From IMG/VR virus record IMGVR_UViG_3300028048_000060, positions 90,737 to 154,736 of that record: DNA of 64,000 nt, one strand, 5' to 3'. How positions within the stretch are numbered: the first letter of the stretch is position 1; every line of letters starts with the position of its first letter. The stretch comes from a virus. Taxonomy: Duplodnaviria > Caudoviricetes. The position numbers and the translations under genes are program-made. Positions 15,024-63,554 of this stretch are shown piece by piece. A model generated the notes under the pieces. That model was not told the DNA's origin and searched no databases. It saw only the letters and a program-made list of their open reading frames with translations.

Positions 15024-15139
15024 TTTAAAAAATTCTAATGACGATTCATTCGCATTAGTAGCTTAACATTAGCGCGAAGAGGTGGGTAAATACCAAAAAG
15101 GGAACCACCTAAAATAAAATACCAAAAAGGGAAAATAAA

Positions 15140-21595: not shown

Positions 21596-21883
21596 CTAAA
21601 ATCTTGGGCCTCTTAGTCCTTCAGGGAAGTGAAGAATGTACTTAGTAGACCTAACTAAGGTCTCATCATACTCGTCATTCTTTCCTAACTGGAATAAAGT
21701 GTAAGGTTCAATTTCAAACTGATGGAGTTTTCCATTGTGATAGGTTCTGAACTTTTGACCTGATTTATTAGCCCAAAGAATCTCACCTTCCTTTTGGAAC
21801 TCTTTGTTTAACTTCTGAAGGTCCTTGATAACTGGATATAAGTCAAACTCAGTATCTGCCTCGTTAAGATATTTGAATTTCAT
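21596..21883 (-). CDS. probable internal head protein
   Basis: MKFKYLNE-A resembles a T4 capsid-targeting/protease site; late promoter at 21910-21917 (-). Confidence 0.55.
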   Translation of the reverse strand: MKFKYLNEADTEFDLYPVIKDLQKLNKEFQKEGEILWANKSGQKFRTYHNGKLHQFEIEPYTLFQLGKNDEYDETLVRSTKYILHFPEGLRGPRF

Positions 21884-21966
21884 AGTATTCTCCTTTTCAA
21901 CTATATGTCTATTTATATTCTATAAATATTTTAATAACAGAGCTTTAATGCTTTAAGGAGTTTTAA

Positions 21967-22356
21967 ATGATTTTTAAACGATTCAGAGACATTTTACAGT
22001 TCATTGAGACAAATGAAAATTTAGATACGTCTTTAAAAGAAACTAAGAATTATATCAAAGAAAACTTAGAAAAAGGATTTACATTTAAAGAACTTCAGTT
22101 CGAACAGGAACTGAATTATGGAATAGATATCTTTGGAACAGTAAGACCTATTTTGGGTGAGATGGTTGATACTAAGACTCAAAGAAAAGACTCTTTAGGA
22201 AGAACAGTGTGCAATCATATCGTGACATTCTTAGTAAAGCACAATGATGATGGGAGTTTCCTGAGTCCTGAGGGAGTTATCTTTACTATAGACATAACTC
22301 CAAAGACTAAGACTGAGTATCAGAGAGTCAAAGTAACTGAGATTTTAAAATTATAA
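21967..22356 (+). CDS. hypothetical late protein
   Basis: TATAAATA at 21921-21928; AAGGAG RBS. Confidence 0.6.
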   Translation: MIFKRFRDILQFIETNENLDTSLKETKNYIKENLEKGFTFKELQFEQELNYGIDIFGTVRPILGEMVDTKTQRKDSLGRTVCNHIVTFLVKHNDDGSFLSPEGVIFTIDITPKTKTEYQRVKVTEILKL

Positions 22357-22834: not shown

Positions 22835-24073
22835 CTAAAGGGAAGATGCTTCATGTTTCGTTGATTGATTGGATCTCTGAATTGCTTCAGAGATCTGTTT
22901 TTCAATCTCCACATGCTTAAATTTGGTGCGTCCCACACCTATATTATTCTTATAGAAAAATATCATATTCTTAGATGCATGAATATCTCTATCTTCTGTT
23001 ATACTACATTCACAAGAGAATGTTCTATCTGATAGAGATAAGTCGTGATATTTTCCACAATTTCTACACAGTTTAGTTGTTGGAAGATAAGCATTTAAAC
23101 AAATTGCATTTGGATTTCTCATCAATTTTGCTTTGACTCTTCCAAGAATACTATGTTGTATAGTCTTACCAAAAGTTCCAGACCATGCATGTAGTTGTTC
23201 ATCTTGGAAAACACAAATTTGATTATCTGTTAAATCACGAACAATCTTATTTGCTAAATCTTCCTTACGATTACACATTTTCTCATATTCTTTCTGGATC
23301 TTTAGACGAGTTTTGTACCTGTTGTTAGAGTTTTTCTTTTGTTTCTGCATCTTTCTTTGCAGTTTCTTTAGTCTCTCAGTTTCTCCAACAAGAACACTAA
23401 TCTTTTGACCTTCAGAAGTGGTGATATGTGTAGAAATTCCTAAATCAATACCAATGACCTTTTCAGGTTTTGTGTATTCTTCTTTTTTATTAAAAGTTGT
23501 TATCTTTAAATAATAACCTGAAGATGTATGTACTAAATTTGCATTTGCGCACTCTACATCTTTATCATAAATGAACTGTTCTAATCCTTGTACCTTTACA
23601 GTTCCAACATTAACTATCCTAACTTTGTTATGGTCTACAATTTTATGTGTACTGCCGTACTGTACTAACGGAAGAGATTTAAGGTCTGAAATATATCCTA
23701 TTCTTCCAACCTTCTTACCTTTCTTCTTTAAAGTGGATAATGTCTTAATATTGGAAATAAAATTTTTATATAGTCCTAATTTTTGTTGTGAACTTAGATA
23801 GTTAAAATCAGAAATAACTTCATTATGTTCTTTGTCAAAATGTTTAACACTTTTAATCTTTAAATCAACGTCTTTAATATCATTAGTTTCGGTGAAATTT
23901 ACAATGTGATTCCAGAACCACTTTCCTTCAACAAACATCATCTTTAATGATTCTTTCTGTTTCTTAGAAAGTTTGTTAGTCTGAATTTTAAGAGAATAGA
24001 CCTTGCACTCCTGAGATTTTCTCTTCTCACGAGTTTCCAATAAACTTTGTCTTATTTGTTCGTTCTTGGTCAT
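22835..24073 (-). CDS. tnpB: TnpB RNA-guided nuclease (IS200/IS605/IS607 family)
   Basis: VIGIDLG, VFQDE, TTKLCRNC..CEC and DRDIHASKN; right-end hairpin gaagcatcttccctttagggcagatgtagttcac ending at 22819. Confidence 0.9.
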   Translation of the reverse strand: MTKNEQIRQSLLETREKRKSQECKVYSLKIQTNKLSKKQKESLKMMFVEGKWFWNHIVNFTETNDIKDVDLKIKSVKHFDKEHNEVISDFNYLSSQQKLGLYKNFISNIKTLSTLKKKGKKVGRIGYISDLKSLPLVQYGSTHKIVDHNKVRIVNVGTVKVQGLEQFIYDKDVECANANLVHTSSGYYLKITTFNKKEEYTKPEKVIGIDLGISTHITTSEGQKISVLVGETERLKKLQRKMQKQKKNSNNRYKTRLKIQKEYEKMCNRKEDLANKIVRDLTDNQICVFQDEQLHAWSGTFGKTIQHSILGRVKAKLMRNPNAICLNAYLPTTKLCRNCGKYHDLSLSDRTFSCECSITEDRDIHASKNMIFFYKNNIGVGRTKFKHVEIEKQISEAIQRSNQSTKHEASSL

Positions 24074-25898: not shown

Positions 25899-27224
25899 TC
25901 AAATATTTGATTGTAGTTCAGACATCTGAGACTTGTGCGTAGCACAAAAATCCAGATGTTTGAAGGTTTTATACTCCGAGAGGTCCTTCCCAAGAGTTTG
26001 ATGCGATTTGTTGTAAACAACAGTCTCACCAAAATTTAATAAGTTCAAGGCAGAGTTATAATCTCTATCAATGATATTACCGCATCCACACTCAAGTGTA
26101 CGTTTGGTAACATCTTTCATTTCTGAATGAATTTTTCCACATTTACAACAAATTTGAGAACTTGGGTAATATTTGTCTGCAAGGACAAAATGACACCCAA
26201 ATTTCTCAGAATTTTCTTCTAACTTTTTAAGGAAATAATTCCATTGTAACAAACTTACTGACTTGCCATGATTACCGCCTTTGGTGGAAGTTTTGGCATC
26301 TAAGTAAGATGTATGCCTAGACATTTCTTTGAGGTCCAAATTCTCAACAACTATCAATTCATTGTGTAAACACAATTCTCTTGATAACTTGTTGAGATAG
26401 TCCTTCTGAATGTTATGAATTGTTTCGTAGAGTTTGTTACGTTTCATCGTGATACGATGGACTTTAACAGAGGTACGAAACTTTTTCTTAGATTTGGTTC
26501 TCATCTTTGAAATAGTTTCATTTAAGGAATTAATCTTCTTTTGAAGTGATTCCATCTTAGACCTCTTTGTTGAGAACTTTGGTGCCTTCGCACCAAAACT
26601 ATCAACGAACAGGTCTTTCAAGGAAAAATCTAAACCAATATGACCATTATCTACACGTTCTTCGTAAACCTTGTCGACTTCGACAAGTAATGAGACTTTG
26701 TAGACCCCAGTTTTAGTTCTTCTGATAGTTCCATACTTAATCTTAGAACTATCTTTTAGAAAAATAGGTTCAATATATTTATTTAAAAATCTAACCTTTC
26801 CAATCTTCGGTATCTTTACGTATGACTTTGACGCATCGTCAGGATTATACGAAATATTCGTGATTGAGGAAGGATAAGAGTCATTATGATCTTTCTTACA
26901 TTTGAAACGTCTTAGTCCTACGGGCTGGCCTTTCAATCTCTTATTTCTATTGATTTTATTAGTTTGAACGAAGTTCAATCTTATAGCAGAACATGCCCAA
27001 CTTTCCATATCTTTCAGGAATTCGTGTTTCTCACGTAATTCTGGAAATGATGGATAATTTGGCATTCTATCTTCTTTAATACAATTCAAATATTCTTCAA
27101 TAAGTTTATTCTTAAACCATCTTGATATGTCTAAAGATTTTGATAATTTAATTTTGTCAGAAGATGTCGGGTTTAGTGTTAACACTAGACCTCGATATGT
27201 TCTTTCTGAAATTATTTTATCCAT
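25899..27224 (-). CDS. tnpB: TnpB RNA-guided nuclease (family copy A)
   Basis: HIGLDF, IVVENL, YPSSQICCKC..CGC and DRDYNSALN; right-end hairpin ending GGTCAC at 25856. Confidence 0.92.
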   Translation of the reverse strand: MDKIISERTYRGLVLTLNPTSSDKIKLSKSLDISRWFKNKLIEEYLNCIKEDRMPNYPSFPELREKHEFLKDMESWACSAIRLNFVQTNKINRNKRLKGQPVGLRRFKCKKDHNDSYPSSITNISYNPDDASKSYVKIPKIGKVRFLNKYIEPIFLKDSSKIKYGTIRRTKTGVYKVSLLVEVDKVYEERVDNGHIGLDFSLKDLFVDSFGAKAPKFSTKRSKMESLQKKINSLNETISKMRTKSKKKFRTSVKVHRITMKRNKLYETIHNIQKDYLNKLSRELCLHNELIVVENLDLKEMSRHTSYLDAKTSTKGGNHGKSVSLLQWNYFLKKLEENSEKFGCHFVLADKYYPSSQICCKCGKIHSEMKDVTKRTLECGCGNIIDRDYNSALNLLNFGETVVYNKSHQTLGKDLSEYKTFKHLDFCATHKSQMSELQSNI

Positions 27225-31240: not shown

Positions 31241-32554
31241 ATGAAACAAAAGAATCAATCTAATAAATCCATCAGAGGTTTAGTTCTTGAACTAAGACCT
31301 GATGATAGTCAGAAAATTCTTTTGTCTGAACATTTAGATGGTTGTAGATTCATATATAATCAATATGTTGAAGAGTATTTAACTTCTATCAAAGAGGATA
31401 GACTCCCTAATTATAAAGATTATAAAGACTTACGTGCAGAGCACGAATTCCTTAAAGATTTATATTCATGGACTCTTCAACAAGTTAAGTTTCAATTCAT
31501 TCAAACTAATAGAATCAATAGATCTAAAAGATCAAATGGTCAGTCCATAGGATTAATTAAATTTAGATCTAAAAAGTCTCACAGTGATTATTTTTATACC
31601 AATAATGTAAAATTATCATATAATTGTGACTGTAAGTCAGAATCATATGTAAACATTCCAAAAATAGGTAAGATTAAATTTTTACGTAATGGTATTAAAT
31701 CTAAGTTATTAGAAGGTAAAATTAAGTCAGCAGTAGTTAGAAGAACCAAAACTGGAGTTTACAAGATTTCGTTACTTGTTGAGGTCAACAAAGTTTACGA
31801 AAATCGTGTAGATAATGGTCATGTAGGTTTAGATTTTTCCCTAAAAGACTTATTTGTCGATAGTTTTGGTGCGAAGGCACCAGAGTTCTTAACAAAGAGG
31901 TCTAAGATGGAATTATTTCAGAATAAGATTAATTCCTTAAATGAAACTATTTCAAAGATGAGAACCAAATCTGAGAAAAAGTCTCGTACCTCTGTTAAAG
32001 TTCATCGTTTAACGATGAAACGTAACAAACTCTTCGAAAGAATTCATAACATTCAGAAGGACTATATCAACAAGTTATCAAGAGATTTGTGTAAACACAA
32101 TGAATTGATAGTTGTCGAAAATTTAGACCTCAAAGAAATGTCTAGGCATACATCTTACTTAGATGCCAAAACTTCCACCAAGGGTGGAAATCATGGAAAG
32201 TCAGTAAGTTTGTTACAATGGAGTTATTTCCTTAAAAAGTTAGAAGAAAATGCTGAGAAATTTGGGTGTCATCTTGTCCTTGCGGACAAATATTACCCAA
32301 GTTCTCAAATTTGTTCTAAGTGTGGAAAGATTCATAGTGAAATGAAGGATGTTACCAAACGTACACTTGAGTGTGAATGTGGTAATATCATTGATAGAGA
32401 TTATAACTCTGCAATTAATATTTTAAAATTCGGTGAGTCTGTTGTTTACAACAAATCTTACCAAACTCTTGGGAAGGAACTCTCGGAGTATAAATCTTTT
32501 AAGTGTTTAGATTTTTCAAAATCAAAAACATTTAAACTACAGTCAGATCTCTGA
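31241..32554 (+). CDS. tnpB: TnpB RNA-guided nuclease (family copy B)
   Basis: HVGLDF, IVVENL, CSKC..CEC and DRDYNSAIN; right-end hairpin gctattgacctttagatcaatagc then agttcat ending at 32597. Confidence 0.92.
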   Translation: MKQKNQSNKSIRGLVLELRPDDSQKILLSEHLDGCRFIYNQYVEEYLTSIKEDRLPNYKDYKDLRAEHEFLKDLYSWTLQQVKFQFIQTNRINRSKRSNGQSIGLIKFRSKKSHSDYFYTNNVKLSYNCDCKSESYVNIPKIGKIKFLRNGIKSKLLEGKIKSAVVRRTKTGVYKISLLVEVNKVYENRVDNGHVGLDFSLKDLFVDSFGAKAPEFLTKRSKMELFQNKINSLNETISKMRTKSEKKSRTSVKVHRLTMKRNKLFERIHNIQKDYINKLSRDLCKHNELIVVENLDLKEMSRHTSYLDAKTSTKGGNHGKSVSLLQWSYFLKKLEENAEKFGCHLVLADKYYPSSQICSKCGKIHSEMKDVTKRTLECECGNIIDRDYNSAINILKFGESVVYNKSYQTLGKELSEYKSFKCLDFSKSKTFKLQSDL

Positions 32555-32583: not shown

Positions 32584-32730
32584 CAATAGCAGTTCATGCT
32601 TTATTTTACTTCTGACCAACACTTTGGTCATACTAACATTATTAAGTACACTAAAGGCCAATAACAGTTCATGCTTTATTTTACTTCTGACCAACACTTT
32701 GGTCATACTAACATTATTAAGTACACTAAA
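32584..32730 (+). repeat. 72-bp direct duplication (period 75) of the tnpB right-end tip plus the first 20 codons of the phosphoesterase
   Basis: 32584-32655 versus 32659-32730, one mismatch. Confidence 0.9.
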
Positions 32731-33243
32731 CGACCATTTGAGTATAGTCAAACAGGAATGATAGACTGTGCAAGGTTTATGTACGATTCTTATCAGCAGA
32801 TAGTCAAAGAAGATGATGTAGTAGTATTCTTAGGTGACTTAGCATTGATTAGAAGTTGTGACAAAGACATTTTCTCTGATATGTTTAGGAGTTTAAAGGG
32901 AACTAAACTTTTTCTTTGGGGAAATCACGACTCATTTTCTGAATCATATTATAAGAAATCAGGATTTAAAGACATAAGAGACTATCACATTGTAGGTCAG
33001 CACTTTATATGTCATTATCCTTGCGTGAGTTCAGGAACTCCTAAGGAAAGACTTTGTAAGAATGCCTTTGACCAGTCAGAGTGTTCCGAGATTTGGCATG
33101 GCCATATCCATGAAAAACACAGTCCTACATTTGATGGGATTAAAAGACACAATATGTGCGTAGACTATGCTCCAAATGCTTTTAAACCTGTTTTAATAAC
33201 AGATCCTGTTCTTCAAGAATATTTTTATCAGTTTAAGGATTAA
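32671..33243 (+). CDS. calcineurin-like metallophosphoesterase
   Basis: SDQHFGH, LGD, GNHD, CHYP and HGHIH motifs. Confidence 0.9.
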   Translation: MLYFTSDQHFGHTNIIKYTKRPFEYSQTGMIDCARFMYDSYQQIVKEDDVVVFLGDLALIRSCDKDIFSDMFRSLKGTKLFLWGNHDSFSESYYKKSGFKDIRDYHIVGQHFICHYPCVSSGTPKERLCKNAFDQSECSEIWHGHIHEKHSPTFDGIKRHNMCVDYAPNAFKPVLITDPVLQEYFYQFKD

Positions 33244-33335
33244 GGATAAGAAAAGGAGTCTTTAAAGACCATAAAAAAGGAGTCTCTAAAGACTCCTTTT
33301 AAATTAATCTCTATTTTATATAAAGACTTTGAAAA

Positions 33336-35288
33336 TTAATTTTGGAAGATTTTAAAACACTTCTTAGATGGTCCAGATGAACTAAATTGTAAAATTGATT
33401 TAAAACACTTAAATCCATCAAACTTCCAGGAATCGCCTAAACTTTCTCTTAGAAGTAACTCTATATTATCTGTGAGAACATTTTGTTCTAAGATAAACTC
33501 TTCGTTAATTAGATTAGCTAGTTTCAGTTCTAAGCTTCTTGGAATCTTAACTGTTTTGTTTCCTTCACTAAGACTGAAATCCTGTTCTTTTGCTTTTCTT
33601 CTTAGAATGTCAGAACCCAGTGGAAGAGTTACTGGAGCGATGTTAGCTGAAGTTGTTCCTAAGGCACAGTCTCCACAGTCTCCGCCTCCACATCCTTCTC
33701 CATCTTCTTCTAAGTAATCAACAAACAGTTTGCCTTGGCTAAGACCTTCTCCTAGACTAATTTCATCATAAGTTGCTAAAATCTCAGGATACAAACTATG
33801 AATCTCCTTAGGAGTGTTCTTTTCAAAAAATTCTTTATCTCTTATATTAGAAATGACTTTTGTTGCACTTATAGCATCTGAGTCTCTTGGATACTCTCTA
33901 ACATCTAATCCTAAGACCTTTTCTACTTGTTTTACATAGTCAAAGTATCTGTCACTTCCACAGAACACTGTGTTGATGTTAAATGGAGACTTAGACAACA
34001 TTCCTAAGATGTTTCCTGAATTGTGTTCAATGATTTCAATCTTATTCTTAAATGTTTTCTCTAACATCTTGTATCTAAGGTCTCTTGTTGCTTTAGTATC
34101 CTTAGATGAAACTAAGCAAACTAGGACTTTGTCGTACTCTTTTAATGCTTTGTTGATAACATTACAGTGTCCATTTGTAAGAACTCTAAACTTTCCTAAG
34201 ATTAAACACCCATTATTTCCCTTTAATGCCTTTAAGATTAAAATTTTAGCATTATGATGGATATCATCTTTTATCTGTAACTCGTTCTTCTTAGAATGAG
34301 ATATGTTAAAGTCTGTTTTCTCTAATAACTCAGATAGTTTTTTAAGTCTTAGATTAATTGGACCTCTTGTAATCTTAGAAGCAATTTCCTTAGATGCTTT
34401 TATTACTTCCTTCCAGTATAGGTCTTCATCTTCAGGATTTTCTTCCATGAACTTTTGTTTGATTAGTCTTCGAGCATTTTGGTCTAACTGATATTCTTGC
34501 TGAACTTTGATTATCTTGTCATCGTACTTGATAACAACTCCTTCTTCTTTTCCACCATAAACGCTTTCTACTTCTAACAGTGTCTTGGTGATTGCTTTCC
34601 AAAGAACTTCAGGGTCTTCTGAATTAAAATCTTCTATGTTCTTATTATAAACATCTCTTAGAGAATTACTTAAAATTCCATTTTTAAAGTCTTTGAGATA
34701 ACCTTTAAACAGTTTGTTTGGAACATCTACTTGAAGGAGTTTAGCATACTCGTCTCTGTTCTCAGTCTCCATAGTCTTAGAGTTAGTCTTTAGAGTTCCA
34801 AATTTAATTTCATTTTCATTATAAGAGCACTGGCTATATCCAATCAGAACTAAGTGATGTGGATTAGTATAGTTAGAACTTAAAGTTGGTTTTCTCTGAA
34901 GAAATTCAATAGCAAACTCAGTGTTAATAGGAAGTCCTGTCTTTCCTAGATTACTAAAATGGTCTAAGACTAACTTATACTGAGAGATGCCTATAGACTT
35001 CTGAATGATTTGCTTAGAGTCCTGGAAGGAAAATTCCTCACTGTACATTATTTGGTTCTTATAGGCAATAATCCAGTCATTTAAGTCTCCATTGTCGTTT
35101 ATATGGAGAACAGTCAGCTTAGTTCCATCTGTTTTGTGTTCTATCTCTACTTCAGTGTTCAAAAGACTCTCAATATCTGACTTAGTCTTTATTACCTTAG
35201 AAGCACTAAGAATAGAGATATCTAGCTGGTCTTTAGACTCAAAGACCATATTTGGGTCTTTGCTTTCGAACAGTTGTTTTAGTCTCAC
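33336..35288 (-). CDS. ATP-dependent ligase-like domain fused to HIGH-family (cytidylyltransferase-like) nucleotidyltransferase
   Basis: Ligase motifs EHKTDG (I), IEF (III), EEGVVIK (IV) and IKV (V), then GKFRVLTNGH, GSDR and ISAT; GTG start; several (L/F)xE-S/G sites. Confidence 0.75.
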   Translation of the reverse strand: MRLKQLFESKDPNMVFESKDQLDISILSASKVIKTKSDIESLLNTEVEIEHKTDGTKLTVLHINDNGDLNDWIIAYKNQIMYSEEFSFQDSKQIIQKSIGISQYKLVLDHFSNLGKTGLPINTEFAIEFLQRKPTLSSNYTNPHHLVLIGYSQCSYNENEIKFGTLKTNSKTMETENRDEYAKLLQVDVPNKLFKGYLKDFKNGILSNSLRDVYNKNIEDFNSEDPEVLWKAITKTLLEVESVYGGKEEGVVIKYDDKIIKVQQEYQLDQNARRLIKQKFMEENPEDEDLYWKEVIKASKEIASKITRGPINLRLKKLSELLEKTDFNISHSKKNELQIKDDIHHNAKILILKALKGNNGCLILGKFRVLTNGHCNVINKALKEYDKVLVCLVSSKDTKATRDLRYKMLEKTFKNKIEIIEHNSGNILGMLSKSPFNINTVFCGSDRYFDYVKQVEKVLGLDVREYPRDSDAISATKVISNIRDKEFFEKNTPKEIHSLYPEILATYDEISLGEGLSQGKLFVDYLEEDGEGCGGGDCGDCALGTTSANIAPVTLPLGSDILRRKAKEQDFSLSEGNKTVKIPRSLELKLANLINEEFILEQNVLTDNIELLLRESLGDSWKFDGFKCFKSILQFSSSGPSKKCFKIFQN

Positions 35289-36482
35289 TTAGAAATCCTC
35301 CTGGATATAATTCTTCTTTGCTATATAGACTCTAAATGAATTTAATGACTCAGACAGGTTACACTTTCCATTAAGACCAAATGTTCCATAGTAATCAGAT
35401 AGCATTGGTTCGTGAAGGTCTTCTAAGCCAAAGAAATTGATAAAGTACTCATATCCTTTGAGTTTAACATCAAAATCCAATTCAGGATTGTTTCTTTCTA
35501 ATTCCTGTGTTCTTTCAGGATAAGACTCCCAAAGTAAGTCTAAGTATCTTCTGTGAACTCTGTCTATAAGTTCTTTAGGAGTATACTTTTGAATTAACTC
35601 ACAAAGACCAACAAATGACCAAAGTTTCTCTAACTCATCGTTTTCAGGGAGTCGGTCAAAGCACTCAACAAACACCTTAGTTAAGTCTTTTTCACCATTA
35701 AACTGGAATCTCTGTAACTGTTTGTATGTATTTTGCTCCTTTGACTGTGTTAAGACTTCTAACTGAGTACAGATTCCTAAGTTAACATCAAATATCTTTA
35801 AACGAGCAACCTTAGGTAACTGAGTATCACCTAACATAACAATTCCTAGAGGGTCTTCGTTCTTAGTTCCTACTAGTGCTCTTAGAAGATACTTGTGATG
35901 GACTGCTTTAATTCCTACCTTAGCATCTTTAAGATTACTTGAGTGTCCAAATCTTGCCCATTGAGATGGCTTTCCATCTATAAAATCTGTAAATTCAAAG
36001 TCTACTTGAGTATAGATTCTGAGTTCACCAATGCCATTTATTTTAAACAAGATATCAAACACACAGTTTATCTGAGACATAGTTGGCTTAAACTCAGGTT
36101 TATTACACCCTAAGTATTTTACATCAGGACTCAGTTCTTTTCCTTCTAAGTCTCTTAGAAAGTTATATAGTTCTAACTTCAGTTCTTTAGGAACAACAAT
36201 GTCTATATCACCAACAAATGGCTTAACCTCCTCAATTTCCTTTGAGTCATAGTTAGGACACATTATGTAAGATGTACTTCCATTAAAGAGATTTCCTGAG
36301 GTTATCTGTTCAGGTTCCCAAAGACGTTTCTTTGTTACTTTTTCAAATAACTGATTGAAATCAGTTACGAACTTGTTGACTTCCTGGACGAAATATGTTC
36401 GTCCAATTGTTTGTAGTGGGACCTTTTCAGCAAAGAACTGTTCCTTTGTGTTGTGGTCCATAACAATAGCATTTCCACCCAT
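35289..36482 (-). CDS. Pol-beta/PolX-superfamily nucleotidyltransferase-like protein, paralogue 2
   Basis: MGGN, FNGST...GDIDIV...QVDFEF and GIKAVHHKYLLRAL. Confidence 0.7.
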   Translation of the reverse strand: MGGNAIVMDHNTKEQFFAEKVPLQTIGRTYFVQEVNKFVTDFNQLFEKVTKKRLWEPEQITSGNLFNGSTSYIMCPNYDSKEIEEVKPFVGDIDIVVPKELKLELYNFLRDLEGKELSPDVKYLGCNKPEFKPTMSQINCVFDILFKINGIGELRIYTQVDFEFTDFIDGKPSQWARFGHSSNLKDAKVGIKAVHHKYLLRALVGTKNEDPLGIVMLGDTQLPKVARLKIFDVNLGICTQLEVLTQSKEQNTYKQLQRFQFNGEKDLTKVFVECFDRLPENDELEKLWSFVGLCELIQKYTPKELIDRVHRRYLDLLWESYPERTQELERNNPELDFDVKLKGYEYFINFFGLEDLHEPMLSDYYGTFGLNGKCNLSESLNSFRVYIAKKNYIQEDF

Positions 36483-36484
36483 AA

Positions 36485-37489
36485 TTATTCCTTATAGAAA
36501 AACTTAAAATAATCTTCAAATCCTAAAATGTCTATAAACACTTTATAAGCATTGTATTTTAATTCTTTGTCTTCTTCTGGATTCTTAGATACTTTGTGAC
36601 TCACAAGCATCTCACAGAACTTAGAATGAATCTCATTAACTTTGTCCCTTGTAAAAGACTCTTTTATCAGTTCACAGACCCCAATAAAAGACCAAAACTT
36701 ATCATAATTATTTAAGTCTTTTTTATTAAACAAATACTTATAAAATCTTCTTACATTTGTGCTTGATGGATTTTTGTTCTTAATAAAAACTTGGAGACCA
36801 CAGACCTTTACAAATTCTTTCTTTGTCTTATTATATAAAGGCTTATATTTTATCTTAAAACCATCTACTACACTGAACACTGCAAACTTAGGAATTTTGT
36901 CATCTTTAACTAAATTTCCATTATAGTCAGCAATTAAGATATTCTGAGATGTAGTATATGTAGTAGCACCTATTAAGAATTTGTGAAAGACTGCTTTGAT
37001 TCCATACTGAGCATCTAAGAAACTAGAACTATGACTGAATCTAGCAAACTCAGTTGGTTCTAAGTCTTTAAATTCAACAAACTCAAAGTCTATCTGACAG
37101 TTTACTCCAACATTAAACACTGAATGAATTTGGTCTATCTTTTCATTATAGACAAAACCTTTAAACAATTTTGAGTCTAAGTTAGAAAGATACTTTATTA
37201 GTGGTTCTTTATAGACTTTGTCTATCATTACGTCTACGTCACCAATAGACTTTTTAACGCCCAAGATATCTGAGTCTGATATTTCAGGATTAAACACATA
37301 CTGAGAACTCCCATTAAAGATAATTCCAGTCTCGATGGAACTTTGTGTCCAACAGTTTAATTCTAAGTTTATTTCATCTAAGATACTTCTTACTTTAGAG
37401 CAAAAGTTAGAACGCCCAATTTTATCTAAAGGAACAGTCTGTGCTGTTGTTTTGATGTTGTCTTTAAAGACTCTGATGTTTCCGCCCAT
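36485..37489 (-). CDS. Pol-beta/PolX-superfamily nucleotidyltransferase-like protein, paralogue 3
   Basis: MGGN, FNGSS...GDVDVM...QIDFEF and GIKAVFHKFL; late promoter at 37517-37524 (-). Confidence 0.7.
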   Translation of the reverse strand: MGGNIRVFKDNIKTTAQTVPLDKIGRSNFCSKVRSILDEINLELNCWTQSSIETGIIFNGSSQYVFNPEISDSDILGVKKSIGDVDVMIDKVYKEPLIKYLSNLDSKLFKGFVYNEKIDQIHSVFNVGVNCQIDFEFVEFKDLEPTEFARFSHSSSFLDAQYGIKAVFHKFLIGATTYTTSQNILIADYNGNLVKDDKIPKFAVFSVVDGFKIKYKPLYNKTKKEFVKVCGLQVFIKNKNPSSTNVRRFYKYLFNKKDLNNYDKFWSFIGVCELIKESFTRDKVNEIHSKFCEMLVSHKVSKNPEEDKELKYNAYKVFIDILGFEDYFKFFYKE

Positions 37490-37627
37490 TTTTAAATACC
37501 TTTAAACTTTTATGTCTATTTATAGAAGCATATTAAAATAGGGTCTTTAAGGACATATAATGGTATTGATTCTTTTACAAATAAATTATATAATATTTTT
37601 AAATAAAAAAATCAAGGAGATTTAATA

Positions 37628-38947
37628 ATGGCTAAGAAAACTTCTGAGAAAAATATCAAGGGTTTAGTATTAATACTAAATCCCGTTCAGTCTCAGAAAA
37701 TTCTTCTTGATAAACATTTAAACAATACAAGATTCATCTATAACAAATATGTAGAAGAATACTTATCATGCTTAAAGGAAAATAGAATTCCAGATTATAA
37801 GGATTATCAGGATCTATGTGAGGAAAACGAATTCCTGAAAGGTCCTTATTCTTGGTCACTTCAACAAGTTAAATTTCAATTCATAAAAACAAATAAAATT
37901 AATAGAGCAAAGAGAGGAAAAGGACAGTCAGTGGGAATTGTTCATTTTCGGTCTAAAAAGGCTCATAAAGATTATTTTTATACTAATAATGTAAAACTTT
38001 CGTTCGACCATGATGATAAGTCAAAATCATACGTAAAATTGCCAATTATTGGTAAGATTCAAATTTTAAATAAGAATATAAAAGATGAATTATTAAAAGG
38101 TAAAATTAAGTCAGCAGTAGTTAGAAGAACCAAAACTGGAGTTTACAAGATTTCGTTACTTGTCGAGGTCGACAAGGTTTACGAAGAACGTGTAGATAAC
38201 AGTCATGTTGGTCTTGATTTTTCGCTAAGAGATTTCTTTGTTGATAGTTTTGGTGCGAAGACACCAGAGTTCTCAACAAAGAGGTCTAAGATGGAATCAC
38301 TTCAAAAGAAGATAGATTCCTTAAATGAAACTATTTCAAAGATGAGAACCAAATCTAAGAAAAAGTCTCGTACCTCTGTTAAAGTTCATCGTTTAACGAT
38401 GAAACGTAACAAACTCTTCGAAAGAATTCATAACATTCAGAAGGACTATATCAACAAGTTATCAAGAGATTTGTGTAAACACAATGAATTGATAGTTGTC
38501 GAAAATTTAGACCTCAAAGAAATGTCTAGGCATACATCTTACTTAGATGCCAAAACTTCCACCAAGGGTGGAAATCATGGAAAGTCAGTAAGTTTGTTAC
38601 AATGGAGTTATTTCCTTAAAAAGTTAGAAGAAAATGCTGAGAAATTTGGGTGTCATCTTGTCCTTGCGGACAAATATTACCCAAGTTCTCAAATTTGTTG
38701 TAAATGTGGAAAAATTCATTCAGAAATGAAAGATGTTACCAAACGTACACTACAGTGTGAATGTGGTAACAATTTAGATAGAGATCATAATTCAGCAATT
38801 AATATTTTAAAATTCGGTGAGTCTGTTGTCTACAACAAATCTTACCAAACTCTTGGGAAGGAACTCTCGGAGTATAAAACCTTCAAACATCTGGATTTTT
38901 GTGCTACGCACAAGTCTCAGATGTCTGAACTAGAATCAAATATTTGA
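37628..38947 (+). CDS. tnpB: TnpB RNA-guided nuclease (family copy C)
   Basis: HVGLDF, IVVENL and DRDHNSAIN; right-end hairpin then aagttcat ending at 38990; promoter TTGATT-17-TATAAT at 37566-37594. Confidence 0.92.
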   Translation: MAKKTSEKNIKGLVLILNPVQSQKILLDKHLNNTRFIYNKYVEEYLSCLKENRIPDYKDYQDLCEENEFLKGPYSWSLQQVKFQFIKTNKINRAKRGKGQSVGIVHFRSKKAHKDYFYTNNVKLSFDHDDKSKSYVKLPIIGKIQILNKNIKDELLKGKIKSAVVRRTKTGVYKISLLVEVDKVYEERVDNSHVGLDFSLRDFFVDSFGAKTPEFSTKRSKMESLQKKIDSLNETISKMRTKSKKKSRTSVKVHRLTMKRNKLFERIHNIQKDYINKLSRDLCKHNELIVVENLDLKEMSRHTSYLDAKTSTKGGNHGKSVSLLQWSYFLKKLEENAEKFGCHLVLADKYYPSSQICCKCGKIHSEMKDVTKRTLQCECGNNLDRDHNSAINILKFGESVVYNKSYQTLGKELSEYKTFKHLDFCATHKSQMSELESNI

Positions 38948-39059: not shown

Positions 39060-40418
39060 ATGTTTGAATCTATTATTTTGAAGAGTCTCTTAGGAGATGG
39101 TGAATTTTTTAACAAAACCATTGGAATTTTAAAATCAGATTATTTTAAGTCATTTGGAGACCAACAGGTTTTTAAGCTAATCAAAGAATATTACTCTAAG
39201 TACCATCAAAAACCACAGAATGTATCTTTAGTAGCAATGGTTAAAGATGTTCCAAATGAAGAAACTAGAAAGTCTATTATAGAATCATTAAAGAAAGTTT
39301 CAGAAACAGAACTTAATACTAATACTCAGTTTATGTGTGACGAGACCATCAAGTTCATTAAAAGTGCTATCTTCTATAAAGGATTAGAAGTTGGAAGTGA
39401 TGGTTTGATGAACAAAGACGAGTCTAAGATGAAGAAAGCACAGTCTATTATGGAAGAAATGAACAAGGTTCAAATAGACTCTGACTTAGGTTTAGACTTT
39501 GACGATTTAGACAAACAGATAGAATACTACTCTAAGAGAGAATTTGGAATCAAAACTCAGCATAAGTCTTTAAACAAAAGATTAGGAGCAGGATTCCTTC
39601 CAGGAACTTTAAATGTGATTTTAGCCGCACAGGGTGTAGGTAAGTCTCTTTTGATGTGTGACTTAATCTCAGGAATGCTCTTAGATAATAAAAACATCCT
39701 GTTAGTATCCTTAGAAATGTCTCAGAATGAGATGTTAAAGAGAATTCAGTCTAATGTCTTTAATATAGATGTTAATTCATTTAGAGACCTTTCTAAGACT
39801 CCAGGTGAACTTCAGGGATTAGAGAGACCTTTTACAACTAAAGAACAGGTCATTCAGGAATATGACAAAGTCAAGGCATCTGGAAAGTGTGGTAAACTGT
39901 TCATTAAAGAGTATCCTGCTGGGTCAATGGGAGCATCAATTCTTCAGGACTTAGTAGATAAATTCTATACTGAAAAGAATATAAAGTTTGATATAATCTT
40001 TATAGACTATCTTGGAATTATGAAATCTGACCTTTTAAGTCCTAATTCAGGTTTGTATAGCTATGTTAAAAGCATAGGTGAAGAAGTAAGAGCATTTGCT
40101 GTGAGAAACTCTGTTCCAGTGGTTACATGTTCTCAACTGAATAGGTGTTTTTCAGTCTTTACCAATGTTATAACAGACAAAGGAATTAAACAAGTTAAAG
40201 ATTTAAAGATCGGCGATAAGTTATTGACAACAAATGGAAACCATAATACAATAAAGAATATAACAGAACCTGAAGTTAAGAGAGCGTTTAAAATCAGGAC
40301 AAAATCAGGAAAGGAGATTATTGTCTCAGAGGATCACAGAATTCCAACTGAAAAAGGTCTGATGTCAATTAGGGTGGGATTAAAGAAAGGAGCTAAGGTT
40401 CACATAAATGAAAAATAA
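39060..40418 (+). CDS. gp41: replicative helicase gp41 N-extein (362 aa) plus N-terminal split-intein half (from Cys at 40146)
   Basis: AAQGVGKS, SLEM, IKEYP, IDYLGI and SQLNR, then intein block A CFSVFT and block B SEDHRIPT; stop at 40418. Confidence 0.92.
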   Translation: MFESIILKSLLGDGEFFNKTIGILKSDYFKSFGDQQVFKLIKEYYSKYHQKPQNVSLVAMVKDVPNEETRKSIIESLKKVSETELNTNTQFMCDETIKFIKSAIFYKGLEVGSDGLMNKDESKMKKAQSIMEEMNKVQIDSDLGLDFDDLDKQIEYYSKREFGIKTQHKSLNKRLGAGFLPGTLNVILAAQGVGKSLLMCDLISGMLLDNKNILLVSLEMSQNEMLKRIQSNVFNIDVNSFRDLSKTPGELQGLERPFTTKEQVIQEYDKVKASGKCGKLFIKEYPAGSMGASILQDLVDKFYTEKNIKFDIIFIDYLGIMKSDLLSPNSGLYSYVKSIGEEVRAFAVRNSVPVVTCSQLNRCFSVFTNVITDKGIKQVKDLKIGDKLLTTNGNHNTIKNITEPEVKRAFKIRTKSGKEIIVSEDHRIPTEKGLMSIRVGLKKGAKVHINEK

Positions 40419-42042
40419 TTTTGTTTATCTTATTTGGAATAAAATAACTCATAAAAAGTATATTGGAGTAAAGTCTTCAGATTTAGAACCGTATGATGTA
40501 ATTGGTAAGAAGTATTTTTCATCTTCAAGAGATAAAGATTTTATAAACGAACAGAAGGAACATCCTGAAAGATTTAAATATAGAGTTTTAAAAAATTTTA
40601 AAAGTAGAAAAGAAGCTATAGAATTAGAGTGTCTTCTACATAAAAAATATGATGTAGCTTGTAATGAAGAATTCTATAATAAAGCACGTCAAACATCAGT
40701 AGGTTTTGACACAGGAGGTGTAGAATATTCAGATGAAAGAAAGCGACAGATTTCAAAATTTGTGAGAGAAAATCTTATCAAACATCCCGAAATCAGAGAC
40801 AAAATTTCAAAGAAATCAAAGGAATGGTGGGACGCACATCCTGAAGCGAAAGAAAGACTAATAAAATTTAATTCGGAAAGAATCCATACGGAAGAGGAAA
40901 AGGAAAAATCAAGATTATCACGTATTGACCCAAAAACAGGGAAAAGCAAATATTCAGGTAAAAATGCATATTTTTATGGAAAGAAACATTCTGAAGAATA
41001 CAAAAATAAAATGTCTGAGTTAATGACTGGAAGAACATTATCTGAAGAAACTAAGAGAAAGCTTTCTGAGAGTCATAAGGGAAAGACACATACAGAGGAG
41101 ACAAAGAGAAAACTCTCCAAGATTGGAAAAGGTAAAGCCAAACCTGAAGGATTTTCAGAGAAAATTTCACAGGCATTGAAGGGAAGAATTATCTCTGAAA
41201 ATGCTAAACAAAAATTATCAGAAAAGGCAAAACAACGAATAAAAGACCATCAGTGTGAGTTTTGTGGAAAGTTCTTTACTAAGCAGGCATATAACCAACA
41301 TCACGGAGAAAAATGTATTTTAAATCCTGAAAGAATCAAAAAAGACAGTCCTTTAAAAGGAAGGAAACGACCAAAAGACTGTTTTTGCGAAGTTTGCCAA
41401 AAATGGTTAGATAAAGGAAATTTTATGAGACATCATAATGGGAAGTGTGATAAGATGAAGATTTTAGACTTTAATGATTACTTGGGTGTTCTTAAATCTC
41501 AGGAACTCTCAGAAACTTTAGACTTTAATGATGAAATAGAGAGCATCGAAGAAGTTGAACCAGTTGAAATGGTTGATATTTCCTTGGATGGAAATAATGT
41601 GTTTTATGCTAACGACATCCTAATTCATAACTGTGCCATCAACAAAACAGATGGAGTTGATAACAGTGCAGTTTCTGATTCATACGGTACAAATGCCACT
41701 GCTGACATGATGTTAATGATTTTACAAAATGAGCAGATGAAAACAAACTCAGAGGTAATCATTAAGATTACTAAGAACAGATACACTGGGATGACAGATT
41801 CTTTTATGATGAACATAGATTATCCAAAAATGAGATTTAAGGAAATTTTACAGAATGAAGGGCAACCTGAGAATGCTCTAACACAGTTTGCTACTACTCA
41901 GCAAAAAGCAGATGCTGAAAGAGAAATTAAAAGTGCTATTATAGAAGATAATAAAGCAAATAATCAAATTGCTAAGGAACATGACAAAAAAGTATCACAG
42001 GGATTATCCTCAGATGAACTAAATGCTCTTTTAGGGTTATAA
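40408..42042 (+). CDS. GIY-YIG/NUMOD3 homing endonuclease in frame with C-terminal intein half (ends HN at 41631) and gp41 C-extein (Cys+1 at 41632)
   Basis: FVY..YIG, YFSSS, FYN and HSEETKRKLS repeats; VDISLDGNNVFYANDILIHN|C; SDSYGT..TAD...KNRY. Confidence 0.9.
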   Translation: MKNNFVYLIWNKITHKKYIGVKSSDLEPYDVIGKKYFSSSRDKDFINEQKEHPERFKYRVLKNFKSRKEAIELECLLHKKYDVACNEEFYNKARQTSVGFDTGGVEYSDERKRQISKFVRENLIKHPEIRDKISKKSKEWWDAHPEAKERLIKFNSERIHTEEEKEKSRLSRIDPKTGKSKYSGKNAYFYGKKHSEEYKNKMSELMTGRTLSEETKRKLSESHKGKTHTEETKRKLSKIGKGKAKPEGFSEKISQALKGRIISENAKQKLSEKAKQRIKDHQCEFCGKFFTKQAYNQHHGEKCILNPERIKKDSPLKGRKRPKDCFCEVCQKWLDKGNFMRHHNGKCDKMKILDFNDYLGVLKSQELSETLDFNDEIESIEEVEPVEMVDISLDGNNVFYANDILIHNCAINKTDGVDNSAVSDSYGTNATADMMLMILQNEQMKTNSEVIIKITKNRYTGMTDSFMMNIDYPKMRFKEILQNEGQPENALTQFATTQQKADAEREIKSAIIEDNKANNQIAKEHDKKVSQGLSSDELNALLGL

Positions 42043-42402: not shown

Positions 42403-42675
42403 ATGAAACTTAAAAACACGATAGTATTCTACACAGATGGAAATAACCGTCATGGTTATTTCTCATTTGATGCTAAGGATGAAACTCATGCTCTTAAAAT
42501 AGCCGCCGATATTACAGGTTATGAGTATGACATGGAAGAATATGACAGTGAGAAAGACGCAATTATAGACGCTTTGTCGCAGGAAGATGGCGATGCTATT
42601 ATCCTAACTGTTATCTATAAGAACAATGTAATCTATGAATCAGAACAGTGTGAGGCATATTATAATGTTAAGTAG
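42403..42675 (+). CDS. hypothetical acidic protein
   Basis: AAGGA RBS. Confidence 0.55.
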   Translation: MKLKNTIVFYTDGNNRHGYFSFDAKDETHALKIAADITGYEYDMEEYDSEKDAIIDALSQEDGDAIILTVIYKNNVIYESEQCEAYYNVK

Positions 42676-43483
42676 AGTCTCAGAAGTTTTTTATAGCTTA
42701 CAAGGTGAAGGAAGACGAGTCGGTCATCCTTCAGTGTTTGTAAGATTCTTTGGATGTAATTTTAGATGTCCTGGGTTTGGTCTTCCTTTAGGGCAGGAGT
42801 CAACTGAACCTGATGAAATTGCTAAGAACAAAGACAAATACCATAGTTATAGTGAACTTCCATTAGCTAAAACAGGGTGTGACAGTTATCCAAGTTGGCA
42901 CCCATCCTTTAAGGAATTTAGTCCTGAAGTGGATGAAGACCAGTTAGTAATGACTATCTTAGATACCTTAAATGGTGTTAAGACTGAGAACGTAGACTTA
43001 GTCTTTACTGGAGGAGAACCTTTACTTCCAAGAACACAGAAGTTTATTGTTTCTCTGTTTCAGAAGCACTCAGATAAACTAAAATTTAACTTAGTGTCCT
43101 TTGAAACTAATGGGTCACAGTCTCCATCTAAAGAACTTATAGATGAAATTCAAAAGACAAACAAACTGTTGTTTAGTATTAGTCCTAAGTTAAGATGTTC
43201 AGGAGTTCCAAGAGACAAAGCAATAAAGCTTTCTGTTCTAGAAGAACTTTCAAAGAATGACAGTTATTTAAAATTTGTTGTTTCTAATATAGAAGACTTA
43301 GATGAAATCAATAATATCATTAAAGATGTAGATATCAAAGAAGTCTATATTATGCCTGAGGGAGGAATTGAGGACAGATATAATTCTAATCTTAGAAAGA
43401 CTGCTTTAATTGCTTTAGCAAAGGGATTTATTCTGAGCCCAAGACTTCATGTGACAATCTTTGGAAATACTTGGGGGACTTAA
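42665..43483 (+). CDS. queE: 7-carboxy-7-deazaguanine synthase-like radical SAM enzyme (start probably 42665)
   Basis: SEVFYSLQGEG, FVRFFGCNFRC...CDS, FTGGEPL, ETNG, SISPK, LKFVV and SPRLH. Confidence 0.85.
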   Translation: MLSRVSEVFYSLQGEGRRVGHPSVFVRFFGCNFRCPGFGLPLGQESTEPDEIAKNKDKYHSYSELPLAKTGCDSYPSWHPSFKEFSPEVDEDQLVMTILDTLNGVKTENVDLVFTGGEPLLPRTQKFIVSLFQKHSDKLKFNLVSFETNGSQSPSKELIDEIQKTNKLLFSISPKLRCSGVPRDKAIKLSVLEELSKNDSYLKFVVSNIEDLDEINNIIKDVDIKEVYIMPEGGIEDRYNSNLRKTALIALAKGFILSPRLHVTIFGNTWGT

Positions 43484-43937: not shown

Positions 43938-44882
43938 ATGAAGTTTTCTCTCATCTTAGAGTCAGGAATCTCTTTAGGAAAAATGGTATATCCCAAGTTT
44001 GGGAATATTGTCATCTTAGCAGGTGGTTCAGGAAGTGGTAAAGGGTTTGTCAAAGACAAACTTCTTTTGATGGATGGGAAGACTTTTGATATTGACAGTT
44101 TAAAGGGTCTTATTGTTCAGTCAGATGTCTTTAACGAGTCATTTTGGGAATATCTGAGAACTGAGTATGTTTCAAAGAATGATGACTTAGACAACAGAGC
44201 AAAATATATCTTAAAGAATAAGATTAAACCTTCTGAACTAGACTTAAAAGACCCTTTAGATACCAGTATACTCCATTTCTTTACATTTAAAAAAGACTAT
44301 GATAATAGACTAAAGAAGAATTTCTTTTTAAATGCTTTAGACACTTCGAGAAAACCAAATGTTATTTTTGACATTACTCTAAGAGACAAAGGCATTTTAG
44401 ACTTAATCTATGACTATGCTTTGTTAGGACAGTATAATCCTGAAAATATCCACTTAGTTTGGGTTTTGAATGATGTCGAGGTAGCTAAAATTCAAAATAA
44501 CCAAAGAGACAGAAGAGTCCAAGAAGAAATCCTTGTGAGTACTCACAGAGGTGTCTCTCTTACAATGAAAGAAATAATTAGAGACTTTGAGAATACAAAG
44601 ACATCTAAAGGAACTAAAATTTCTGATATAATCAAAGGTGATATTTGGATTATTCCAAACAGAACTGATGATTCTATTATAGACAATAATGTTTTTATCG
44701 CGTTTAATAGTTTTAAGTTAAAAGAATCAGGAAAGAGCATAAAGACAATCAAAGAAGTTCAGGATGAAAGAGTTATCATTATGAACAGAGACGATTTCAA
44801 GGAAACTCTAAGAACTAAGTTTTTAGGCTCTGACCTTCAGAAAAAAATAGATGACTATGTCCCGAAAGATGCCCAGTGGTAA
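43938..44882 (+). CDS. P-loop kinase (zeta-toxin/PNK-like), probable internal head protein
   Basis: LAGGSGSGKG, VIFDIT and lid NNQRDRRV; N-terminal MKFSLILE-S. Confidence 0.7.
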   Translation: MKFSLILESGISLGKMVYPKFGNIVILAGGSGSGKGFVKDKLLLMDGKTFDIDSLKGLIVQSDVFNESFWEYLRTEYVSKNDDLDNRAKYILKNKIKPSELDLKDPLDTSILHFFTFKKDYDNRLKKNFFLNALDTSRKPNVIFDITLRDKGILDLIYDYALLGQYNPENIHLVWVLNDVEVAKIQNNQRDRRVQEEILVSTHRGVSLTMKEIIRDFENTKTSKGTKISDIIKGDIWIIPNRTDDSIIDNNVFIAFNSFKLKESGKSIKTIKEVQDERVIIMNRDDFKETLRTKFLGSDLQKKIDDYVPKDAQW

Positions 44883-63387: not shown

Positions 63388-63463
63388 GGAAAGTTAGCCA
63401 AATGGTTAAGGCACTGGATTGCAAATCCAAGATTTATAGGTTCGAATCCTATACTTTCCTCCA
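63388..63463 (+). tRNA. tRNA-Cys(GCA)
   Basis: Cloverleaf; anticodon loop TTGCAAA; GGTTCGAATCC; encoded CCA. Confidence 0.9.
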
Positions 63464-63471
63464 AGATTAAA

Positions 63472-63546
63472 GCGGGTATAGTTCAATGGTTAGAACGCTG
63501 TCCTTCCAAGTCAGATATGAGAGTTCGATTCTCTTTATCCGCTCCA
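63472..63546 (+). tRNA. tRNA-Gly(TCC)
   Basis: GCGGGTA acceptor; loop CTTCCAA; GTTCGATTC; CCA. Confidence 0.88.
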
Positions 63547-63554
63547 AGATTAAA

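Follow-up and report, generated by a model that had tools for sequence, protein, structure and literature searches.

A minus-strand operon of PolX-like nucleotidyltransferases and a ligase-HIGH fusion in a T4-like phage: a candidate capsid-delivered kit for nucleic-acid end repair

The window analyzed here is the final 64 kb (64,000 nucleotides, positions 90,737 to 154,736) of the 154.7-kb IMG/VR virus record IMGVR_UViG_3300028048_000060, which is 68% complete and comes from a T4-like phage of bovine and other ruminant gut metagenomes (portal, tail sheath and tail tube proteins, a split gp41 helicase and a QueE-like protein are encoded). It contains an operon of three minus-strand open reading frames (ORFs), separated by gaps of 2 and 0 nt, that encode two nucleotidyltransferase (NTase) paralogues, P0003 and P0002, and a protein, P0001, in which a ligase-type domain is joined to a HIGH-type nucleotidylyltransferase domain; a third NTase paralogue, P0004, lies 12 kb from the operon (Table 1). 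An earlier sequence-only reading of this DNA had described the tightly packed operon, a late-promoter-like box ahead of it and the distant third paralogue, and all were borne out: the ORFs are exactly as it gave them, the box is present on the minus strand and enriched in the window, and the third paralogue is real, with 30-37% identity among P0002, P0003 and P0004 (E 1e-45 to 1e-77). All three are assigned to phrog_19290, and they are the only NTase copies in the whole record. Of the three, P0004 is nearest to the lone NTase of other phages and in this respect resembles an orthologue.

Table 1. Coordinates of the operon and associated features, in window positions; a slash within a peptide marks a predicted cleavage junction.
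Feature	Position	Strand	Size or extent	Basis and remarks
NTase paralogue 3, P0003	36485..37489	-	334 aa	Starts M-GGN; shortest copy; without the C-terminal ESF tail; phrog_19290, E 6e-34
NTase paralogue 2, P0002	35289..36482	-	397 aa	Starts M-GGN; C-terminal LSE/S..FRVYI tail; phrog_19290, E 8e-48
Fusion protein P0001	33336..35288	-	650 aa	GTG start
P0001, leader	35238..35288	-	17 aa	Ends VFE/S; sequence comparison with homologues
P0001, ligase-type covalent nucleotidyltransferase domain	34467..35234	-	aa 19-274	K52-T-D-G, E85, E248-E-G-V-V-x-K254, K261
P0001, helical linker or ligase C-domain	34221..34466	-	aa 275-356	Helices 285-354 in model; not an oligonucleotide-binding (OB) fold
P0001, HIGH-type nucleotidylyltransferase domain (TNGH/GSDR/ISAT), NMNAT/PPAT fold	33756..34220	-	aa 357-511	PF01467 and structure
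P0001, C-terminal extension	33336..33755	-	aa 512-650 and stop codon	Disordered Asp/Gly/Cys-rich linker, aa 512-568 (GEGCGGGDCGDC); small alpha/beta domain, aa 570-650
NTase paralogue 1, P0004	20284..21507	-	407 aa	Leader MKLFE/GG; AlphaFold2 model, mean predicted local distance difference test (pLDDT) 91.9
T4-type late-promoter-like box, TATAAATA	37517..37524	-		27 nt before the first operon ATG
TATAAATA (21910-21917) with ORF (21596-21883)	21596..21917	-	95-aa ORF	Leader MKFKYLNE/A; co-oriented with and upstream of P0004
Metallophos phosphoesterase	32671..33243	+	190 aa	Convergent with operon; phrog_547; PF00149; PDB 1xm7, E 3e-11
Terminator-like hairpin, GGAGTC-TTTAGA-GACTCC then T6	33273..33296	-		Between the convergent operon and phosphoesterase genes; read directly off the sequence
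P-loop protein, candidate kinase	43938..44882	+	314 aa	Leader MKFSLILE/S; Walker A GGSGSGKG
Solo TnpB (OrfB_IS605 / Cas12f1-like TNB), at least 4	22835-24073 (-), 25899-27224 (-), 31241-32554 (+), 37628-38947 (+)			Two flank the operon

The motifs that the sequence-only reading had picked out in the NTases and in the fusion are all present, and are invariant or nearly so in 47 and 30 homologues, respectively. Both operon NTases contain NGS, GD(I/V)D, Q(I/V)DFEF, F(G/S)HSS, HK(Y/F)L and F(D/S)V..G. The signature of the Pol-beta superfamily (G[SG], DxD or DxE, and a third carboxylate) is present, and residues G72-S73, D96-x-D98 and D160/E162 do not vary among 47 diverse NTase sequences, P0002 and P0003 included. 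The segment that follows the palm presumably resembles the motif that precedes the thumb in PolX. The family is large, with 712 clusters at 50% identity recovered by a profile search of 1.84 billion representatives.

Structural comparison of P0004, modeled with AlphaFold from 47 diverse homologues, points to family X polymerases. The best solved matches in Foldseek were all Pol lambda or Pol mu but one (E about 5e-3, probability 1.0). An all-against-all structural search placed Pol beta at Z 7.5 and the Pol X of African swine fever virus (ASFV) at Z 6.9, with 165-187 residues aligned over palm and thumb; for ASFV Pol X this amounts to 165 residues of the model against a 176-residue chain. When the 1000 best Foldseek chains were re-aligned with VIA, the top 50 were all family X (Z 7.5-8.2, 165-195 residues aligned, root-mean-square deviation (rmsd) 3.3-4.7), a Z of about 8 being in the range that the alignment tool grades as middling. 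With members of the superfamily generally, the palm of P0004 aligns at Z 5-8. Among viral models the nearest to P0004, after uncharacterized phage proteins, are giant-virus family X polymerases, and in a related Atlas cluster PF01909 is found on 33% of members. Around 60 residues stand ahead of the palm, and some alignments extend through them into the fingers of Pol lambda and Pol mu, with no helix-hairpin-helix motif recognized; P0004 also has an extra C-terminal helical domain (about aa 284-407) and a spacing of 23 residues between GS and DxD. Profile searches gave nothing for the polymerase assignment: Pfam had zero matches to the 47 NTase members even at E 10, a search of the genome with PF14791 (the PolX thumb) had none, and the NTase-family profile retrieved no polymerase from PDB sequences. 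From the models we conclude that the paralogues are probably active Pol-beta-superfamily nucleotidyltransferases, for which the closest known architecture is a minimal PolX core. The Pol-beta/PolX reading made from the sequence thus stands for the fold, but we stop short of placing the paralogues in family X in the strict sense: Z-scores near 8 are middling and no PolX profile matches. One further structural match to the NTase, BFVD A0A6J5TD12, is a 1096-aa uncultured-phage protein annotated as ParB/Sulfiredoxin, a domain typical of injected "polyvalent" proteins.

The fusion protein P0001 was modeled at pLDDT 79 and has four parts. Pfam, NCBIfam and PDB profile searches recognized the HIGH domain only and found no ligase family. 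The structure of the ligase domain resembles NgrRnl (5cot, Z 11.9, 186 residues aligned), T4 Rnl2 (1s68, Z 11.2, 187 residues aligned to a chain of 233), REL1 (Z 10.3) and Trl1 (Z 9.8). The Trl1 alignments reach residue 338, and Foldseek matched the domain at E 3e-5. Ligase motifs I, III, IV and V occur in order, and K52, D54, G55, E85, E248-E249-G250-V251-V252, K254 and K261 are invariant or nearly so among 30 homologues (K254 is conserved in at least 90%). One DNA ligase scores nearly as well (Z 10.2), so the domain may act on either RNA or DNA. A separate canonical DNA ligase is encoded elsewhere in the genome, which argues that the P0001 ligase is an additional, specialized one. The HIGH domain scored 24.2 bits against PF01467 (cut-off 21), and its structure matches NMNAT (1f9a, Z 15.9, 147 residues aligned of 164) and PPAT (4nah, Z 15.6), although it is far under the equivalog cut-offs (22 bits against 103 for TIGR01510; 18 against 181 for TIGR01527). 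Its TNGH (T371-N-G-H374), GSDR and ISAT (I473-S-A-T476) motifs are conserved in the 30 fusion homologues, and the fusion also has a weak match to phrog_3462, annotated as NMNAT. The C-terminal extension is confined to close relatives, and most homologues stop near residue 510. These models support P0001 as a probable Rnl2/Rnl5-type ligase domain fused to an NMNAT/PPAT-fold domain. Both folds had been proposed from motifs; structure searches agree with the first and assign it to the RNA-ligase type, and PF01467 together with structure agrees with the second.

A striking feature of both families is the residues that come before their conserved cores. Among NTase representatives clustered at 50% identity, 74 begin M-GGN and 51 have extra residues ahead of GGN. 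In 45 of the 51 cases the extension, 4-450 residues long, ends in [LIVMF]-x-Glu directly before GGN; the other six end in Met, indicating an over-called start codon and leaving 45 of 45 genuine leaders with the hydrophobic-x-Glu (hxE) ending. The idea that this Glu is part of the fold, not a cleavage site, was rejected because 74 representatives start M-GGN. On this pattern every NTase would mature to a Gly-Gly-Asn N-terminus, some by losing Met and others by being cut after hxE. Leaders in the fusion family, 4-46 residues long, essentially all end in hxE within two residues of the start of the S/T-x-D-x-LDISIL core; in P0001 the junction is ...VFE/SKDQLDISIL, and 9 residues of the leader (SKDPNMVFE) are duplicated in tandem, which has created a second (L/V)FE/SKD site; the homologue P0125, 96% identical, does not have this duplication. 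At the other end of the NTases, hxE/SF(R/K)xY(L/I) is conserved in 93 of 123 sequences and may be a C-terminal site like that of Alt.

These leaders look like the signals by which T4 targets and trims proteins of the head. Two 10-residue examples, MKSFKQFLLE and MSTFKQFLAE, match the T4 capsid targeting pattern and presumably resemble the leader of IPIII. T4 gp21 cleaves head proteins after L/I-x-E, residues 4 and 7 of the 10-residue capsid targeting sequence serve targeting and residues 8 and 10 processing, and Alt is trimmed at both termini (PMC9026906). The genome encodes a gp21-family protease (Peptidase_S77, PF03420, E 1.9e-23, above the cut-off; G000:40745-41170). Homologues have been detected in virions of the Campylobacter phage IBB_35 by electrospray ionization tandem mass spectrometry, where the NTase homologue is gene 1-56 (17% coverage) and two pieces of the fusion homologue are genes 2-25 and 2-24 (2.9% and 23.7% coverage; PMC3322345). 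Gene 1-56 begins MKLSELMFILE/GGN. Together the motifs and the IBB_35 homologues make these families appear to be gp21-processed, capsid-targeted head proteins. Delivery in the virion, as the sequence-only reading had envisaged, gains support from the leaders and from mass spectrometry of the IBB_35 homologues, and may hold for this phage as well. Short leaders of the hxE type were also seen on other ORFs in the window, MKFKYLNE/A (21596-21883, minus strand), MIFKRFRDILQFIE/T (21967-22356, plus strand) and MKFSLILE/S (43938-44882, plus strand), which suggests that this phage targets further proteins to its capsid.

Gene linkage was surveyed in a phage database of 50,697 records and in 35 NTase loci from IMG/VR, 29 of which have at least 3.5 kb of downstream sequence. 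The fusion family occurs in 21 of the 50,697 records, 15 from Campylobacter Firehammervirus phages and six from Vibrio Va1-like phages, and the NTase family in the same phages and in two Xanthomonas phages. Every record with the fusion also has the NTase, or the NTase is found on another contig of the same phage. In Va1 the fusion gene is 1.3 kb from the NTase gene and on the same strand, and in three long metagenomic T4-like contigs the fusion gene comes directly after the NTase or one gene later. Across the IMG/VR loci the fusion lies less than 3 kb downstream of the NTase in 20 of 29, on the same strand in 19. In two proteins, P0270 (892 aa) and P0245 (1180 aa), one ORF encodes all three domains, NTase, ligase and HIGH; they are separate cluster representatives, each 42-44% identical to P0001. 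At some loci genes of 378 and 454 aa separate the NTase from the fusion; these belong to no Pfam family and are not NTase paralogues. A PHROG "Hsp20" neighbor recurs in four loci, and the module adjoins tail-fibre or gp15 genes in Va1, L008, L010 and L011. A megablast of the operon itself against the 50,697 phage records had no match. Among the grounds on which the sequence-only reading proposed to abandon its idea were predicted structures lacking the folds and genes that fail to co-occur in related phages; the folds are there, and the genes co-occur in both surveys.

A phosphoesterase and, in some relatives, a kinase accompany these genes. In 14 of 33 loci a Metallophos homologue is encoded upstream of the NTase in the same orientation, less than 3 kb and often only 60-100 nt away, so the suspected link between the operon and the convergent phosphoesterase gene is upheld by a conserved neighbor elsewhere. 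We regard this protein as a candidate 3'-end healing enzyme. Between NTase and fusion, five loci (L020, L026, L027, L032 and L033) encode an AAA_33 kinase of about 175 aa for which the best NCBIfam match is the kinase region of bacterial polynucleotide kinase-phosphatase (Pnkp); each of the five has an N-terminal leader ending in hxE, for example MRFIQYLIE/S. In L009 two AAA_33 genes come directly after the fusion (14160-15514). Of the set of kinase, phosphoesterase and ligase, Metallophos and ligase occur together in the window and at 14 of 33 loci, and the kinase occurs in the five relatives' loci and L009. The window's own P-loop protein at 43938, which had been proposed to supply end-healing, was dropped as the module kinase, since the profile of the relatives' Pnk-like kinase matches its P-loop only (E 0.16). 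A CoaE match of one relative kinase (E 0.004), likewise limited to the P-loop, was not accepted as evidence for coenzyme A chemistry.

The window has 17 copies of the box TATAAATA that stands ahead of the operon, where 7.45 would be expected, and none of 100 shuffles reached that count. As would suit a T4-type late promoter, copies lie upstream of genes for the portal, sheath, tube and TnpB. In four metatranscriptome studies of ruminants, RNA-library contigs span the operon and run across the junctions between its genes, weakly suggesting that it is expressed, with DNA carry-over a possible source. Contig ends at 37492 in three of the studies were rejected as a transcript start because loose ends and strain divergence are present, and depth differences between these contigs are no basis for ranking expression.

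The ancestral order Hsp20, Metallophos, NTase, fusion is rearranged in this window, where two diverged duplicates occupy the place of P0004. The operon is inverted relative to Metallophos, and TnpB genes flank both sides. A similar-sized ORF at 948-2267 (minus strand), outside the TnpB family scan, is a possible fifth TnpB, and most TnpB ORFs are preceded by TATAAATA at 20-40 nt. The GC-rich hairpin between the convergent genes was absent from the list produced by a consensus scan for terminators. Elsewhere in the window, the DnaB/gp41-like helicase (39060-42042, plus strand) is divided between two overlapping ORFs, the second of which has PHROG matches to a homing-endonuclease region and then the helicase C-terminus, and a 608-aa protein (17200-19026, plus strand) has homing/HNH endonuclease PHROG matches and a weak Mom-like DNA modification match. 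Three tRNAs, Cys-GCA, Gly-UCC and Gln-UUG, lie at 63388-63630 (plus strand). A QueE-like radical-SAM gene (42635-43483, plus strand; phrog_2076, E 1e-47) implies a putative 7-deazaguanine pathway, like that of the Campylobacter Firehammervirus phages in which the module also occurs.

We see about an even chance that the operon, P0004 and the neighboring phosphoesterase form a capsid-delivered kit that heals, fills and seals broken ends of DNA or RNA. In this scheme the module enzymes would be late products that are directed into the prohead, are processed by the gp21-type protease and enter the next host when the DNA is ejected. There the Metallophos enzyme and, in relatives, the Pnk-like kinase would restore 3'-OH and 5'-phosphate ends, and the PolX-like enzymes would extend or fill 3'-OH ends. 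The NTases would need a free Gly-Gly-Asn N-terminus, which may lie close to where the nucleotide binds. Sealing, via Lys52-AMP, would fall to the Rnl2/Rnl5-like domain, and the NMNAT/PPAT-fold domain could transfer an adenylyl group from ATP to some phosphate acceptor as an accessory step. The substrates considered are incoming phage DNA, with its nicks, gaps and ends, and host or phage RNA such as cleaved tRNA. Capsid delivery is proposed because of the leaders, the protease gene and the virion proteomics of homologues; a break-repair pathway, because an end-extending enzyme, a ligase, a phosphoesterase and, in relatives, a kinase are genetically linked and sometimes fused. Repair would be independent of phage gene expression because the enzymes arrive ready-made.

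A more specific version, to which we allow a small chance, is that the kit carries out pre-packaged, translation-independent tRNA repair and can replace a missing nucleotide. Once the host had shut down translation by cleaving tRNAs, the injected phosphoesterase and kinase would heal the ends, a PolX-like terminal transferase would re-add the excised nucleotide and the Rnl-type ligase would seal the loop, and the NTase paralogues may differ in nucleotide preference. Such a pathway could be a phage answer to anticodon nucleases that excise the wobble nucleotide, such as RloC. This enzyme was originally named in restriction loci of Campylobacter jejuni, and the lesion it makes by excising the wobble nucleotide is predicted to defeat T4-style heal-and-seal repair (PMC2610378). 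An enzyme that adds nucleotides would make good that shortfall.

Several observations weigh against the repair kit. The NTases resemble PolX only modestly (Z about 8, rmsd about 4 Å), searches of Pfam, NCBIfam and PDB sequences left them unrecognized, and cGAS-like, OAS and TUTase folds reach similar Z-scores, although only about 100-125 palm residues align. The activities of the module enzymes are read from folds and gene linkage alone, and the repair scheme gives the HIGH domain no clear part. P0002 and P0003 are leaderless, and we infer their packaging only from the behavior of the family. In the IBB_35 virions the coverage of the large fusion fragment was low (2.9%), and one-dimensional gel mass spectrometry can pick up contaminants. 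A profile search did not find the relatives' Pnk-like kinase in this 68%-complete genome fragment, and about 65 kb separates the NTase gene from the fusion gene in the Campylobacter phages.

The packaging evidence would fit equally well if the proteins were injected to take over the host in the manner of T4 Alt, the NTases AMPylating or UMPylating host proteins and the ligase/HIGH protein adenylylating another host target. Pol-beta NTases are among the protein-modifying domains of injected polyvalent proteins (Iyer et al., 2017; PMC5512222), and one structural relative of the NTases is fused to a ParB/Srx domain typical of such proteins. We nevertheless consider this role unlikely, as polymerases, thumb included, give the structural matches that are longest and most consistent, and linkage or fusion of the NTase to a full ligase motif set, Metallophos and a Pnk-like kinase amounts to a parts list for break repair. 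The HIGH domain, closest to NMNAT and PPAT (Z 15.9 and 15.6) and with TxGH, G(S)D and IS(A)T motifs, could instead point to nucleotide metabolism or signaling directed against host defence. The NMNAT-fold domain might then, on arrival, rebuild NAD+ or make another dinucleotide, and the NTases might make or mimic oligonucleotide signals, with NAD-depleting or cyclic-nucleotide defences as the targets. The weak phrog_3462 (NMNAT) match would agree with this, and cGAS-like and OAS folds tie with PolX on Z over the palm; but these matches extend for about 120 residues against 165-195 for PolX, no Nampt or Nudix partner was seen in the conserved neighborhood of the loci viewed, and the invariant ligase domain would have no explanation, so that we think a signaling role rather improbable.

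That the enzymes take part in the chemistry of the phage genome and not in damage repair, for instance in the addition or joining of end nucleotides or in DNA modification tied to the 7-deazaguanine pathway, seems very unlikely. The QueE-like gene is 5 kb off, the NTase and fusion genes of CP220 and IBB_35 are near radical-SAM/QueE genes, and Firehammervirus DNA is hypermodified, but most metagenomic loci with the module have no 7-deazaguanine genes nearby, and packaging in the head would be pointless for enzymes that act during replication. T4 RNA ligase 1 (gp63), which is both an RNA ligase and a tail-fibre attachment protein, is a precedent for a mainly structural or assembly role in which enzymology is secondary. 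The presence of the IBB_35 homologues in virions and the position of the module beside tail-fibre or gp15 genes in Va1, L008, L010 and L011 could be taken in this way. The catalytic residues of all three folds are, however, invariant across hundreds of diverged clusters, and the leader and cleavage pattern indicates the head interior, not the tail; a structural role would be extremely surprising.

If the repair kit is real, it would constitute a widespread new class of injected cargo, composed of PolX-like enzymes, a ligase-adenylyltransferase, a phosphoesterase and a kinase with head-targeting leaders, and it could explain how certain phages withstand nucleases that strike before early genes are expressed or while they are being expressed. 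A mature Gly-Gly-Asn terminus that is strictly needed and is reached by two routes would be an unusual enzymological feature. Our literature search found no characterized phage system of this composition, and the module families are annotated as "hypothetical" at most. Injected phage proteins are known (T4 Alt and the internal proteins, P1 Dar, the N4 and phiKZ RNA polymerases), and phages are also known to encode break-repair enzymes that they produce after infection; the module would bring the two together. We know of no other polymerase-X-like family in tailed phages. Cultivable carriers of the module exist in the Campylobacter Firehammervirus phages and in Vibrio phage Va1 and its relatives.

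Each component can be compared with well-studied enzymes. The phage NTases share with family X polymerases (ASFV Pol X and the cores of Pol lambda, Pol mu and TdT) the Pol-beta palm with GS, DxD and a third carboxylate, and align with them over palm and thumb (165-195 residues, Z 6.9-8.2); like ASFV Pol X, which has neither an 8-kDa lyase domain nor helix-hairpin-helix fingers, they may lack both. They differ in matching no PolX sequence profile, in the 23-residue spacing between GS and DxD, in the extra C-terminal helical domain and in the obligatory Gly-Gly-Asn. The NTase domain of the P0001 ligase has the fold of T4 Rnl2, NgrRnl (Rnl5) and REL1 (Z 10.3-11.9, about 185 residues aligned), with KxDG, EG..K and the motif V lysine and with no OB domain. 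Unlike these ligases, it is missed by Pfam and PDB sequence profiles, is fused at its C-terminus to an NMNAT/PPAT-fold domain and has a prohead-protease leader. The HIGH domain has the NMNAT/PPAT fold over almost its whole length, with TNGH as in PPAT and GxD and ISxT as in NMNAT/NadD, but is far beneath equivalog cut-offs; to our knowledge, no fusion of a HIGH-type domain to a ligase has been characterized.

As a system, the module resembles T4 Pnkp with Rnl1 and bacterial Pnkp with Hen1, in that a P-loop kinase (in relatives), a Metallophos protein and a ligase-type adenylyltransferase are encoded side by side. It is unlike them in placing these activities on separate polypeptides, in having one to three PolX-like NTases as the possible "fill" step, in having no Hen1 that we saw and in proteins that appear to be packaged in the capsid, not expressed early. 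The proposed order of healing, filling and sealing is comparable to that of mammalian PNKP, Pol beta and ligase III. The leaders are like those of the T4 internal head proteins (IPI-III, Alt) in being often 8-10 residues long, with aromatic or hydrophobic residues at positions 4 and 7, L/I/M at 8 and Glu at 10, whereas the cargo consists of nucleic-acid enzymes, not an ADP-ribosyltransferase or nuclease inhibitor, and many members are leaderless. The idea of packaging a PolX-type polymerase and a ligase in the particle to mend the genome on entry has a parallel in ASFV and giant viruses; those are eukaryotic viruses that carry a DNA ligase and an AP endonuclease, whereas the phage module has an RNA-ligase type enzyme, a phosphoesterase and a kinase.

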